Part shown: positions 29,036-54,450 of the stretch, piece after piece | Position numbering within the stretch: position 1 is the stretch's first letter | Layout: each line of letters begins with the position of its first letter | Source: Chiloscyllium plagiosum | Lineage: Eukaryota | Direction: 5' to 3' | Length of the DNA stretch: 64,000 bases | Assembly (NCBI RefSeq): GCF_004010195.1 | Contig: NC_057718.1 | Location: 98,903,794 to 98,967,793, forward strand | Program-made: the position numbers and the translations under genes | The notes under the pieces: model-generated | What the model was told of the DNA's origin: nothing | Database searches by the model: none | Seen by the model: the letters and a program-made list of their open reading frames with translations, nothing else

Positions 29036-29041
29036 TTTATT
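29036..29041 (-). terminator. Candidate MKKS 3' poly(A) signal
   Basis: First AATAAA I noticed on the minus strand after the stop, about 810 nt downstream; another lies at 28230-28235. Confidence 0.3.
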
Positions 29042-41635: not shown

Positions 41636-41752
41636 AGATTATAAGGACAAAAAATTAAGGAAATTCATTGTATTAGTACTTTTTTTTTTAACTAGATTAT
41701 AAGGACAAAAAATTAAGGAAATTCATTGTATTAGTACTTTTTTTTTAACTAG
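41636..41752. repeat. 58-bp near-perfect tandem duplication
   Basis: agattataaggacaaaaaattaaggaaattcattgtattagtac(T)n aact occurs twice. Confidence 0.9.
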
Positions 41753-45965: not shown

Positions 45966-46815
45966 TTTAAAATTATATTTATTGACTGAAAACTGATTTT
46001 TTTTCATATTCTGATCACCGCTAATATTTCATATTTATTCATATTCTTCTACTGTTTACATCCTCCATTTTGTACAATTCCTCAGCAACGCGTGCAGGTG
46101 GGATAACATGCTCCCAAGTCTCTCTGCTGGTCACTATGGGTGAGCAATTGTGCAAGAGCAATGGGAGATTAGCTCACATATTTTCTTATGTTCTCTTGCC
46201 ACCTCTTGTACCCAGTTTGGATGACACAGAATTTATCATGTAGGAAACTGCAAGGACAAACTTGATGACTAATATTCTGTAGCCAAGCGCCAAGGATTTG
46301 TTTTTAGAAGTGCTAAAAGTAGCATCAAATGTTGAGAGGAATGACTGATTCTTAGGTCAGGTTGCTGATGTACTTTTATCTGACAAAACAGCACCTTTTG
46401 ATGTCTGATTTTCAACTGGGTATAGATATCAATTGCTGCTAGGTAGAATGGGAATCTAAACAGCAGGCAATTAATCTGATGGCCAAAAGAACCTTCAGTC
46501 ACATTTACATAGAAAATCGGTTTTGGATCACAGAATTAAATAAGTCACACAACTAGGTTAATGATATCATATTTATGATTTTAAGAAATTCTTACCACAG
46601 ACAATTGATGTAAGGCTTAAGTTATTTGTCTATTCCTCTTGCCTCCTAGGAATAAGCCTTAGGGAGTTAAAACAAAAAACAACTAAACAACCTATACAAA
46701 AACAAAGAACATATGTACACTTGCACCTTCAAAGTCTGAACCTAATCATAAACATCACATATCACTATCAGACGCACTAGTTGAAGTAAATATTGTTAGT
46801 GATTAACATACCAAC

Positions 46816-47800
46816 CTGTCATTTGAATCAGAGGCTCCATGAGGGCAACTCCAAGTCTATCTCCTACCATCACTTGTTGCTCCTGGAGATATTGTTTTAG
46901 AACAGGATGGATCACTCGCTGACACAAAACAAGGTGAACTTGGTCATAAACTAGCTGTTTTCCCACCTTCAGCAGCTGTGCAAGTGATTCATCTTCAGGA
47001 CTGAAATCTGGTGTCACCTCCCAGGTTCCATTCCCACTGTCAACAACATCTCCTGACATGGAAACATTGAATACAGCAATCTTAATGTAACCAAATGTCA
47101 ATTTTGTAATATCAACTGTTGTTGAAGGAGATGAAAATATCTCTATAAGGATCCCAGAAAGCACACAGGAGTCAGAAACACTTTGCCCCTCAATGGGAAC
47201 AATCTGCATCTTTCCCAAAGATACATGATCTCCAATCACAGATGGTATTGTGTAAAAGAATGCCTTTAACACTAAGGAACTGATGTAGTCAGCTTCTTTT
47301 GTAGTCAACATACAAGTAGGCTTATTTATCATTGTACGAACAAGTGAAAGCAAAGTCTTGCTGTTACTAAAATCTATTTGTATTCTGCAGCTACATTCCT
47401 CAGAAGTTAGATAGTCAAGGCAAATATTCAGAAGGTGTTTATGGATTTTGACAATGTGACTGCTTGGTACATTAAGTTGTTTTGCATTTTCAGCCAAATT
47501 ACAGCAGAGAATCGCTGTAAAAAGTCCAGAATCACTAAATCGAGAAACATGATTCAGCACGGAAGCTATTAGCAACTTCATCACAGGATGGGACACAGAA
47601 AGATTACGCAAAAGCGCAGAAGACTGTGATGTGGTTAGAACGTAGCCTCCTACAGCATTGTGAATTAGTTTTAGTCTACCAAATGGGCCATAACAGGACT
47701 CCACAATTCCTCTGAGAGTGGAAAGAGCCTGACAAAGTACATCACTATTTAACTGTCCAGAACTGCATGAAGATGCTATTTTAGGTGAAATTGAGGCCAT
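46816..47800 (-). CDS. MKKS: MKKS/BBS6 chaperonin-like protein, coding exon 1 (985 nt from the second ATG; an in-frame ATG also lies at 47803)
   Basis: ORF 46796-47803 reads SCYGPFGRLKLIHNAVGG...SDSGLFTAILCCNL...CQRVIHPVLKQYL...DRLGVALMEPLIQMTG, recognisable as MKKS. Donor ACAG|GTTGGT at 46816/46815, phase 1. The ATG at 47800 has A at -3 and G at +4. Confidence 0.96.
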
Positions 47801-47856
47801 CATTCAGGTAGAGTAGTGGAAGGTCTGAAAACAGCACACTTGCAAAGATTAGTTGG

Positions 47857-47862
47857 TTTATT
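47857..47862 (-). terminator. Candidate poly(A) signal for a short uORF-only transcript
   Basis: AATAAA on the minus strand followed about 20 nt downstream by GU-rich GTGTGCTGTTTTC; lies between the uORF2 stop and the MKKS ATG. Confidence 0.6.
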
Positions 47863-48064
47863 ATTTTCAAAATGAACCGAAATTTAACATGCAGCACTTC
47901 TCCTCTGATCATTAAAATGCTTGTACATTCCAAATGTGCCAGTCATATTATAGAAGATGAAAGTTATTTGAAATTCCCATTGAAATATATTTCAATGCTA
48001 AACCAACTAGAAGAGCAAAATTTGGATGCATTGTAAAAGATTTATCTTGCTTGACATTTCATTA

Positions 48065-48211
48065 TTATTTATCTATATTCTTCTGCTTCAGTTCTAAACT
48101 TGTTGATTTTTTTACAAACTTCTGCATCAGATATGTTACAGTATGGATTCCAAGTAAGGACAGTCCTGCCACTAGAAGCCAATTTTTGCGAAACCATGCT
48201 TTATTTCTCAT
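48065..48211 (-). CDS. MKKS upstream ORF 2 microprotein (48 aa, single TM; uMKKS2-like)
   Basis: MRNKAWFRKNWLLVAGLSLLGIHTVTYLMQKFVKKSTSLELKQKNIDK*; the W.RKNWLLVAG motif matches mammalian uORF2 as I recall it. ATG at 48211 has A at -3. Acceptor ttttctatttgcag| at 48262. Confidence 0.9.
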   Translation of the reverse strand: MRNKAWFRKNWLLVAGLSLLGIHTVTYLMQKFVKKSTSLELKQKNIDK

Positions 48212-48484
48212 TCTTCTGTAAGGATGCGACAACGAAATATCTGCATTCCAATTTAATATTATCTGCAAATAGAAAATATGTACAGTTAAATTGTGCTTTG
48301 AAAACATTAAGTTTTCAAATCATATAATCTACATCATTGTGGAGACTATGTAGTCTATCATGCCTCTGGCTCTGAAATAGTTTAAATCCAAACTTCGGCC
48401 TGGACTTACTCATATACCTGCAAATTTGTCCTTTTCAAGTACATATCCAATTGACTTTAATACGTCACTGTGAAATCTGATTCC

Positions 48485-51000
48485 ACAAAGACCTAAGGGG
48501 CAACTTTTTCACACAAGGTGGTACGTGTATGGAATGAGCTGCCAGAGGAAGTGATGGAGGCTGGTACAATTACAACATTTAAAAGGCATCTGGATGGATA
48601 TTTGAATAGGAAGGGTTTTGAGGAATATGGGCCAGGTGCTGGCAGGTGGGACTAGATTGGGTTGGGATATCTGGTCGGCATGGATGAGCTGGACCAAAGG
48701 GCCTGTTTCCATGCTGTACATCTCTATGACTCTATAACTCTTTCAATTTAAGTCCAATTTAAGTACAGGAGTTGGGAGGCCATGTTGCAGCTGTACAAGA
48801 CATTGGTTAGGCCACTTTTGGAATAATGCATGCAGTTCTGGTCTCCTTCCTATCGGAAAGATGTTGTGAAACTTGAAAGAATTCAGAAAAGATTTACAAG
48901 GATGTTGCCAGGGTTGGAGGATTCGAGCTATAGGGAGAAGTTGAATAGGATGGGGTTGTTTTCCCTGAAGCATCGGAGGTTGAGGGGTGACCTTACAGAG
49001 CTTTATAAATTCATGAGGGGCATGGATATGATAAGTAGACAAGGTCTTTTCCCTGAGGTAGGGGAGTCCAGAATTAGAGGGCATAGGTTTAGGGTGAGAG
49101 GGGAAAGTGGTGGTGGGCGGCACGGTGGCACAGTGGTTAGCACTGCTGCCTCACAGCGCCAGAGACCCGGGTTCAATTCCCGCCTCAGGCGACCGACTGT
49201 GTGGAGTTTGCACGTTCTCCCCGTGTCTGCGTGGGTTTCCTCCGGGTGCTCCGGTTTCCTCCCACATCACAAAGATGTGCAGGGTCAGGTGAACTGGCCA
49301 TACTAAAATTGCCCGTAGTGTTAGGTAAGGGGTAAATGTAGGGGTATGGGTGGGTTTCGCTTCGGCGGGTCGGTGTGGACTTGTTGGGCCGAAGGGCCTG
49401 TTTCCACACTGTAATCTAATCTAATCTAATCTAATCTAATCTAATCTAATCTAATTTTATATAAAAGAGACCTGGGGCAACTTTTTCAGGCAGAGGGTGA
49501 TACGTGCACGGAATGAGCTGCCAGAGCAAGTGATGGAGGCTGGTACAATTGCACCATTTAAAAGGTATCTGGATGGGTATATGTATAGGAAGGGTTTGGA
49601 GGGATATGGGCCAAGTGCTGGCAGGTGGGACTAGATTGGGTTGGGATATCTGGTCGGCATGAACGAGTTAGAACGAAGGGTCTGTTTCCATTCTGTACAT
49701 CTGTATGTATGATGGAAACACACCCTTTAGTGCAACTCATGCATGCTGACAAGGTTTCCTAAACTGAACGAGTCCCATTTGCCTGCATTTGGCTCACTTC
49801 CCTCAAAACCTTTCTTTTCCATGTATCTTTACAAATATCGTTCAAATGTTCTAACTGTACCCATTTCTATCACTATCTCTGGCAGCTCATACCACATACA
49901 CACCATCCTCTATTTAAAAAAGTTGCCCATCACTTCACTTTTAAATCTTTACCCTCTCACCTTAAATTTATGCCCTCTAGATCTGGGCTTCCCTTCCCTA
50001 GGAAAAAGACCTTGGCTATTCCCTTTATCTATGCCCCTCATGATTAAAAAAAAACTTGAAGGTCACCCGTCTGTCCCACTCGAGAGAAAAAGTCCTAGCC
50101 TCTCTTCATAACGCAACTTCCAATCTCAGTAACATCCTTGTAAATCTTATTTGCACCTTTCCAGTTACTGTACGCAGAACTTCAAATGTGACCTTACCAA
50201 TGTCTTGTAAAGCTATAACATGACATCCCAACTCATGTACTCAATGCTCTGACCAATGAATGCAAGTGTGCCAAATGCCGCCTTCATCAACCTGTTTACC
50301 TGTGACACTACTTTTAAGGAACTATGTACCTGCACCCCTAGGTATCTGTTTGTTTTAAGGCAGAGACATATTGATTCTTGTTAAGCATAGGGGTGAAAAG
50401 GTTAGGAATTGGGAGGTCATATTGTGGCTTACAGGACATTGGTTAGGCCATTTTTGGAATTGTGTGTCCAATTCTAGTCTCCTTCCTATTGGAAGGATGT
50501 TGTAAAATTTAAAAGGGTTCAGAAAACATTTACAAGGAGGTTTCCAGGGTTTGAGGATTTGAGCTATGGGGAGAGGCTGAATAGGCTGGGGATGTTTTCC
50601 ATGGACTGTCAGAGGCTGATGGGTGACCTTTAGAGGTTAATAAAATCATGAGGGTCATGGATAGGGTAAATAGATAAGGTTTCTTTTCCAGGGTGTGGGA
50701 GTCCAGAACTAGAGGGTACAGATTTAGGGCGAGAAGGGAAAGTTATAAAAGGGACCTAAGGGACAAAGTTTTCATACAGAGAGTGGTCTGTGTATGGAAT
50801 GAGCTGCCAGAGGAAGTGGAGAAGGCTGGTACAATTACAGCATTTAAAAGGCATCTGGATAGGTACATAAATAGGAAGGGTTTAGAGGGATATGGGCCAA
50901 GTGCTGACAAGTGGGACTAGATTAGGTTAGGATATCTGGTCTGCATGGACAAGTTGGACCGAAGGGTCTGTTTCTGTGCTGTACATCTCTGACTTTATAA
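48485..51000. mobile_element. Cluster of CR1 3' fragments in both orientations in the intron between the two uORF exons
   Basis: Fragments at 48485-48740 (+), 48760-49710 (+), 49710-50345 (-) and 50400-51000 (+). Confidence 0.85.
49114..49454 (+). mobile_element. Young HE1-type SINE inserted into a CR1
   Basis: CpG-rich, intact A/B-box-like motifs, perfect (CTAAT)n tail; splits the CR1 sequence ggggaaag/atataaaagagacc. Confidence 0.9.
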
Positions 51001-51979
51001 ATTTTATCAGGGTTAAGTGGGAATGCAGACTTAAGGCAAGAAACCTGATCAGTTAGGATCTTATTGAATGGTGGGGCAGGCTCGAAGGGCTAAATGGTTT
51101 ACTCCTCGACCTTGTTTGTATTTTTGTAAGCCAAGCATCCCATTCAATTTCTTATCCACCTTCTAAATTTGCCCTGGCACCTTCAAAGATTAAAGAACCT
51201 GCACTGCAGATTCACATGTTCATACATCCTCCTCAAATTAGCACCAATTAGATGATACTGTCTTTCCATGTTATTGCTCACAAACTGTAATCACTTCAAG
51301 TATATCCAAAATTAAAATTTCACTACCCATTTTTCAGTTTATTTTCTCACTTACGTCCCCTTCTTCTCCTGAACTCTACTATTATCATGCTCAATTATCG
51401 CATTACCAAGATCATAATGGGTTCCTAATTTTGGAATTGTATTCAAATCTTGGTCATTTCAATAATAAGAGTAATGGCTTTGGCGGATTTCAGTACATAC
51501 TAAGTTCCTATATATTTAAAAGCCCCAGAAATGACACCAAATCCTACTTTTCTTCTATAAATTTGCAAACTATCGCAGTTTGCATGTTAAGGATGTTTTA
51601 ACAGAACTTGACAAAAGCTGCATCAAACATATATCTTTTGTTTAAACCCCTGTGTTTTTGTTGAGTTACCACCTACCCCTCCCCCCCCCAAAAAAAGACA
51701 GTCAGCATGACCTCTGACCAATTCAAGGAAAGCACGAAAGACACCTGAAACTATTCACCTGCTCTCCCATATTCATAATAAAATTAAAAGGGATATTTGC
51801 ATCTCAAAAATACAGTCGTTTGCTTGTATTGCTACAAAATAGATGAGATGCTACAAAGTACTTATAGCCCAGTTTTGTGTATTTTTGCACACTTTTCAAC
51901 CATCATAATTTCGGAGTTGATTTTCCTATTCTTGACATAATTTATGAAGGGAGTATGGCTTACCTAGCAAATCCAGTCA

Positions 51980-53879: not shown

Positions 53880-54450
53880 CAGCAGCGCCTCTCGCTTCAG
53901 CTGAGGCTCTGCCTGCGGTGTTATGTACGTGTGTGTCTGGATGATTTTTAAAGGGTTTAAATGAGCCGTAAGAACACCTCTCCCTCGCCCTCGCCCTCTC
54001 CCCTCAGGCTCTCACTCACCTTCAGCCACTCCGCCATTGCACACAGGCCCAAGGACCTTCCCGCGTCACTCCTGCTCCACCGTGAACAAAACAAATAAAA
54101 GGAAGCACGGGGCACCGAACGAAATAAACTGTTCGAAATTTAAAAAAAAAAGGTAACTGCGACCGGGCTGAAATGTATTATCAGTTTTTTTTAAAAGAAA
54201 AACAAAAATCAGGCATTAGCGTAGGCAGCTATATATTATTTAATACCTGTTTTTTTTATAAAGAATGTGTGAGGGGGAGGGGGAGGGGGCTTTCGGCTGT
54301 TCCTGGCTCTCATGGGGATCGCTGCAGCTTCACAGTTTCTCCCAGAAAGCCCCCCCTGGCTCCCGGCGGACGGTTAGCGCATGCGCCGCGTGAACCCCCA
54401 TTTGAACAGGCGGCGGGTTCGAAACGGTTAGTGAGGGCGAGGGGAGTTGA
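53880..54450. promoter_or_regulatory. CpG-rich bidirectional promoter MKKS / SLX4IP
   Basis: Main non-repeat CpG-dense stretch in the window. NRF1 core GCGCATGCGC at 54377-54386, CRE half-site CGTCA near 54064, outward-facing donors at 54019 (-) and 54427 (+, ACG|GTTAGT). Confidence 0.75.
54020..54070 (-). other. MKKS: Probable MKKS first (leader) exon; TSS uncertain
   Basis: Consensus donor AAG|GTGAGT at 54020/54019 inside the CpG-rich region; alternative donor GAG|GTAAAG at 53876. Confidence 0.55.

Follow-up and report, generated by a model that had tools for sequence, protein, structure and literature searches.

Evidence for a heavily used poly(A) site just ahead of the MKKS start codon in the shark Chiloscyllium plagiosum, overlapped by a splice-acceptor look-alike that is probably incidental

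What becomes of a transcript in which a poly(A) signal, a branch point and a 3′ splice site all seem to share the same 40 nt, directly before a start codon? This question is raised by the MKKS locus of the shark Chiloscyllium plagiosum, which we analysed in a window of 64,000 nt (the whole stretch of DNA studied; all gene features below lie on its minus strand). An earlier note on this DNA had placed AATAAA at 47862-47857, CTAAT at 47852-47848 and a CAG acceptor ending at 47825 ahead of the MKKS ATG, and had proposed three fates for the RNA: cleavage into a short mRNA with two upstream open reading frames (uORFs), splicing to 47824, or read-through into MKKS. The motifs are indeed present there, with CAG at 47827-47825 and ATGATG at 47803, and the spacing given for the branch-like A also holds, A 47849 being the 25th base upstream of 47824 and 24 from the last intronic G. 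A competing AAG, absent from that note, ends at 47839, between CTAAT and CAG, where cleavage falls. Immediately beyond the mapped cut comes the GU/U-rich tract at 47839-47826, with G or T at 11 of its 14 positions, which is likely to be the downstream element for cleavage.

The main ORF of the locus is MKKS/BBS6, as judged by domain content and protein identity: the exon-3 peptide carries the Pfam domain Cpn60_TCP1 (E 3e-44), and its 328 aa are 100% identical to C. plagiosum XP_043552539.1 (MKKS). The coding span runs from the ATG at 47803 to 29852, occupying exon 3 down to 46816, followed by the mapped exons 4 (37811-37630), 5 (34403-34293) and 6 (from 30292). In its read-through form, exon 3 (48262-46816) holds uORF2, a spacer with 12 ATGs and the first 329 MKKS codons. 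Candidate distal poly(A) signals lie at 29041 and 28235. In exon 6 (around 30160), 7 of the 8 annotated C. plagiosum isoforms examined diverge from the main sequence at one point, after residue 468/469, which suggests a donor inside the last MKKS exon. A 58-nt tandem duplication occupies 41636-41752.

Four of the 24 listed RNA runs were mapped on 46700-48400. X19 consists of raw poly(A) single-cell reads from one sample, of which about 2% was sampled and 337 reads mapped, while X1, X5 and X11 are contig sets; since exon junctions are present in the contigs, these sets behave as RNA. As mapping was limited to the exon-3 stretch, junctions are visible as loose ends. The exon 3-exon 4 junction was seen in X1 and X11, and at 46918 all four runs differ from the window by a change that, by eye, is silent.

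Upstream of MKKS, the spliced RNA carries two uORFs in the order uORF1, uORF2, MKKS, with exon 2 joined to the exon-3 acceptor at 48262 in all four runs. Exon 2 (52190-51964) has a 5′ boundary placed by motif only and ends in the donor TAG/gtaagc at 51964; the loose ends that match its 3′ end belong to 13 X19 reads and to a single contig per contig set, for all three sets. It contains uORF1 (52171-51980, 63 aa), which resembles uMKKS1/LOC128706665: the top Atlas match is 'LOC128706665 homolog' (score 0.97, 230 of 256 features), and by eye it agrees with the human 63-aa peptide (PMC12313729 Table 1) at 18 of the first 33 residues. The uMKKS2-like uORF2 (48211-48065, 48 aa) lies in exon 3; all six candidate homologues come from shark or ray (69-98% identity), and 18 of its first 30 residues equal, again by eye, those of the human 50-aa peptide in the same table. 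For uORF2 there was no clear match in the Atlas. Both peptides were absent from the protein collection by exact look-up and matched no Pfam family above the cut-off, and no alignment was obtained between the two. At 48191, 17 of 17 X19 reads as well as X11 differ from the window, giving Leu at uORF2 residue 7, a residue shared with five more distant homologues.

Further upstream, motif and frame arithmetic place the 3′ end of exon 1 at 54037-54020, with an ATG at 54037 and the donor AAG/gtgagt at 54020. Joined to 52190, this exon would yield a 9-codon uORF0 (54037-54020 and 52190-52179) stopping 3 codons into exon 2, which makes it a possible candidate for the counterpart of human uMKKS0. An assembly gap of N at 54560-54545 lies close to the presumed promoter, and a 5-nt microsatellite occupies 49412-49455. 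In the read-through RNA, the MKKS start is overlapped by a 43-codon out-of-frame ORF (47912-47781; no Pfam match), which would likely repress MKKS from that RNA.

The fate most clearly recorded in the RNA is cleavage. In X19, 135 tailed reads end at 47839-47845, 12-18 nt after AATAAA, within the range where the earlier note had suggested looking for 3′ ends (47830-47845). Their poly(T) loose ends comprise 5 reads at 47839, 79 at 47840, 28 at 47843, 11 at 47844 and 12 at 47845, the main site following TTTGC(AA) at 47842-47840, with templated A's blurring the exact base, and at the cut a depth of 158 in one bin gives way to 0.3 in the next. Vertebrate poly(A) tails begin 10-30 nt after AATAAA. 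The 20 genomic bases beyond the cut hold only 2 A, which argues that the tails do not stem from internal priming. The site thus combines non-templated tails after AATAAA with a GU/U-rich element beyond the cut, the latter read from sequence only. A TGTA at 47927-47924, 87 nt upstream of cleavage, is a candidate for what we take to be a CFIm element.

Together with the exon 2-48262 junction reads, these tails substantiate the proposed short uORF1-uORF2 RNA. The read-through product is supported too: contigs cross 47840-47803 unbroken, and three of them span 47824 (X1 46814-48264, X11 46816-48264 and X5 47244-48264), so that an RNA keeping the leader and entering MKKS exists. Both the short uORF-only RNA and the long read-through RNA are accordingly evidenced, from reads and contigs rather than from end-to-end single molecules. 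In X11 and X5 the part upstream of the cut is about 11-fold deeper than the coding part, a short-to-long ratio that, with only the exon-3 stretch mapped, rests on rough contig arithmetic and on depth, a poor measure of expression.

Splicing of exon 2 to 48262, tailing at 47839-47845 and read-through into MKKS were all observed, and the choice facing the RNA is therefore two-way: cleave or read through. We consider it highly probable that exon 3 holds a proximal poly(A) site in heavy use, which ends RNAs about 40 nt ahead of the MKKS ATG, and that the overlapping branch point and CAG merely resemble a splice acceptor and are likely unused. CPSF and CstF would be recruited through AATAAA and the GU/U-rich tract in the manner usual for vertebrate poly(A) sites, perhaps helped by the TGTA at 47927, and cleavage would produce an abundant short mRNA encoding the two mitochondrial microproteins. 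Where the site is occasionally skipped, the long three-ORF mRNA would result. At least 16 upstream ATGs remain in exons 2-3 of this mRNA; by analogy with mammals, little MKKS might be made from it, through leaky scanning or reinitiation past those ATGs. With a CAG behind it by chance, the GU/U-rich downstream element may simply mimic a polypyrimidine tract and its acceptor. As human MKKS is very scarce beside the 63-aa peptide, no bypass of the uORFs needs to be invoked.

An alternative, which we regard as unlikely, is that U2AF and U2 snRNP compete with CPSF and CstF for the same 40 nt, regulated splicing to 47824 dropping uORF2 together with 12 ATGs and raising MKKS where it is needed, for example in ciliated cells. 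The geometry of the acceptor fits this proposal, with branch point, pyrimidine tract and YAG correctly spaced, the branch-like A standing at -25. No ATG is left between 47824 and 47803, and, according to frame arithmetic, an RNA joining exon 1 to 47824 would contain a 12-codon uORF with its TGA immediately before the MKKS ATG. Moreover, the real cut falls between CTAAT and CAG, so that cleavage and splicing to 47824 would exclude each other. Were the acceptor used, the locus would possess a compact either/or switch that would account for MKKS translation despite some 17 upstream ATGs; such use is not supported by the data.

Splicing to 47824 was the novel claim of the earlier note, and in the RNA it found no backing. 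No joint, contig end or listed loose end lies at 47824-47826 in any of the four runs, and the junction reads that the note had named as a check were likewise not seen entering 47824, in contig sets limited to common isoforms. None of the nine listed contig pieces starts or ends at 47824. X19, with a depth of 0.3 at 47783-47839, piles up at the 3′ end, and its depth of at most 2 in the coding part is too low for a test of this junction; real power for it resides in the three contig sets, and contigs drop rare variants. A positive control is nevertheless provided by minor branches from the exon-3 donor that the contigs kept, to 44314 in X11 (depth 5.3, about 6% of the donor depth of about 82) and to 46657 in X5 (depth 10), both matched by eye. 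On this basis, use of the 47824 acceptor above roughly 5-10% would probably have shown in X11. The two branch targets, 46657 and 44314, are cryptic intron-3 acceptors on the minus strand, each found in a single contig, and the 46657 branch meets a stop, by eye, after about 13 codons.

N-terminal extensions were sought among cartilaginous-fish MKKS proteins, of which 41 of 42 start where MKKS normally does, the remaining one being a fragment; since an in-frame TGA precedes the MKKS ATG, this lack of extensions is weak evidence on splicing to 47824. Our literature search found no paper on an MKKS splice acceptor or alternative acceptor.

How often such an overlap would arise by chance bears directly on the regulated-splicing proposal. 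Splice sites were scored by rule-based counts, with thresholds fitted to the candidate site. The loose pattern AATAAA-N0-12-YTNAY-N14-30-YAG has 12 matches in the window (2 of them alternative readings of another match), compared to 10.5 +/- 3.5 in shuffles. Strict acceptor criteria (YAG, at least 9 of 16 pyrimidines, CTRAY at 18-44 nt and no AG for 12 nt) were passed by 125 of the 8391 AGs in the window, and at this density, about one per kb per strand, look-alikes are common enough to speak against the proposal. In its favour, only 2 of the 119 other AATAAA have an equally good site behind them: with the MKKS one included, 3 of 120 AATAAA carry a strict look-alike 25-60 nt downstream, rising to 13 of 120 if any YTNAY is allowed. 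Judged by strict criteria chosen after the fact, the overlap is thus uncommon (about 2%), whereas looser criteria make it not rare (about 10%); it lies within reach of chance. For a true poly(A) site with a U-rich downstream element, the odds of an acceptor look-alike should rise further. On these simple measures the candidate scores as well as the real exon-2 acceptor, with 9 versus 8 of 16 pyrimidines and CTRAY in both.

Conservation could be assessed in one close relative, organism C (X11 contigs), which differs from the shark by 21 changes and 2 indels in about 1450 nt (about 1.5% divergence), both indels of this 1.45-kb piece lying within the 70 nt of the motifs. On the conservation that the earlier note had named as a test, this relative gives a mixed picture: AATAAA and CAG are kept, whereas CTAAT carries a 1-nt insertion and the spacer a 5-nt deletion. 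Retention of AATAAA and CAG would be expected anyway at this divergence. The extra A in CTAAT would weaken the branch consensus rather than abolish it, and counts against regulated splicing, as do the 5 nt lost between CAG and the MKKS ATG: provided that organism C has the same exon 1, this loss would make the exon-1 uORF overlap the MKKS start in a different frame. On the other side stand the preserved CAG and a G>T change at 47837 that makes the tract more U-rich and improves it, a change that would suit a role in either cleavage or splicing. Weighed together with the absence of a junction from all four runs, even though X11 retained branches at about 6% of donor depth, these observations leave the 47824 acceptor unproven and probably incidental, rare or tissue-restricted use being possible. 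That the spliceosome takes over the 40 nt of the cleavage machinery in some tissue or stage outside our sample, creating a microprotein-to-chaperonin switch, seems to us improbable.

A weaker version of acceptor use, in which a few percent of read-through RNAs would be spliced cryptically to CAG in an unregulated and unselected manner, strikes us as very unlikely; it would not conflict with what the preferred explanation says about the poly(A) site. Low-level cryptic splicing does occur from the exon-3 donor in X5 and X11, and one of the sites involved matches the strict scan: 44314 is among its 15 intron-3 look-alikes, yet is used at a low level in X11. Look-alikes are thus not always silent, a fact that cuts both ways. 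However, such noise was not observed at 47824, and cleavage between CTAAT and CAG destroys most of the precursors on which it would depend.

The genome itself holds a further trace of the cut. A search with 47700-48262 returned the gene itself and one other place, on contig C24 (L002:1501-1695, G000), where about 190 nt match 48018-47840 at 79-81% identity. This copy stops at the main cut, 47840, and continues into an A-run (8 in a row, 2 of them templated); it also contains the TGTA. It is likely to be a 5′-truncated retrocopy of the 3′ end of the short mRNA, although, by eye, it has no clear target-site duplication, and the locus is without uORF sequence. Its divergence exceeds more than tenfold that between the shark and organism C, which suggests that the cut site is old. 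Both AATAAA and CTAAT are altered in it, and as the copy decays neutrally and its changes cannot be polarized, these were not counted against the branch point. The genome search found no retrocopy that includes exon 2 or the MKKS start and would thereby preserve a junction, although the lack of a match does not show absence. That the tailed reads are an internal-priming artefact in a plain 5′ UTR, a reading favoured only by their origin in a single raw run from one sample, is already largely refuted and hardly credible, given the A-poor downstream sequence, the canonical spacing from AATAAA to the tails and an independent genomic copy that stops at the same base in an A-run.

How, then, does a leader poly(A) site of this kind compare with known systems in which two machineries meet on one precursor? 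In the SL1-type operons of Caenorhabditis, processing is mutually exclusive. There, according to excerpts of PMC1488885, the AATAAA of the upstream cistron lies beside the 3′ splice site before the downstream ORF, as it would in the switch model for the shark; the worm case differs in that it involves trans-splicing and an acceptor that is demonstrably used, whereas no use of the shark acceptor was seen. Competition between splicing and intronic cleavage/polyadenylation, as outlined in the available sections of PMC11802343, likewise gives one precursor alternative fates and employs U-rich elements for both machineries. The shark site, however, sits in an exon of the long RNA (a composite exon) and not in an intron as described there, unless the acceptor is used.

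The closest parallel is mammalian MKKS itself. The sections of PMC12573267 and PMC11837024 that were available attribute to human MKKS a 63-aa uMKKS1 (Q9HB66, LOC128706665), a 50-aa uMKKS2 (V9GZ13) and 5′-UTR alternative polyadenylation (Akimoto et al. 2013, PMID 23671934), and, as excerpted, PMC12573267 describes a long transcript besides a short uORF-only one made through a 5′-UTR poly(A) site. The earlier note likewise mentions such short uORF-only isoforms, made by alternative polyadenylation, as reported in mammals. The human MKKS leader contains several poly(A) signals, as stated in a review, and in the reporter work excerpted from PMC11837024 the MKKS uORFs repress translation and the poly(A) signals lower the mRNA level. 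In human cortex, MKKS yielded 14 spectra versus thousands for the 63-aa peptide, and two Ensembl MKKS isoforms diverge at the exon 2-3 junction, in the sections of PMC13577902 at hand, which give no acceptor near the MKKS ATG. The shark site goes unmentioned in the available parts of the other literature (PMC7530721, PMC4568590, PMC9776223, PMC4705651, PMC10908861, PMC6886504, PMC12243911 and bioRxiv 10.1101/2024.10.01.615885).

Shark and human share the order uORF1, uORF2, MKKS, similar uORF peptides, and a short RNA made by a leader poly(A) site next to a long RNA with all ORFs; the shark site is thus the counterpart of the known mammalian MKKS 5′-leader alternative polyadenylation (uMKKS1/uMKKS2). 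What distinguishes the shark case is that it concerns a cartilaginous fish, with one dominant cut at 47839-47845 and an old genomic copy of the 3′ end. Translation of the microproteins, their mitochondrial location and repression of MKKS, all reported for human, are predicted for the shark. The mammalian arrangement, in which early cleavage keeps a pair of mitochondrial microproteins apart from the ciliopathy chaperonin, itself scarce, thereby extends to cartilaginous fish, at a poly(A) site that is mapped to a few bases and hence open to direct mutation. By analogy, this suggests that RNA-level control of MKKS may be at least as old as the jawed vertebrates, or else arose twice.
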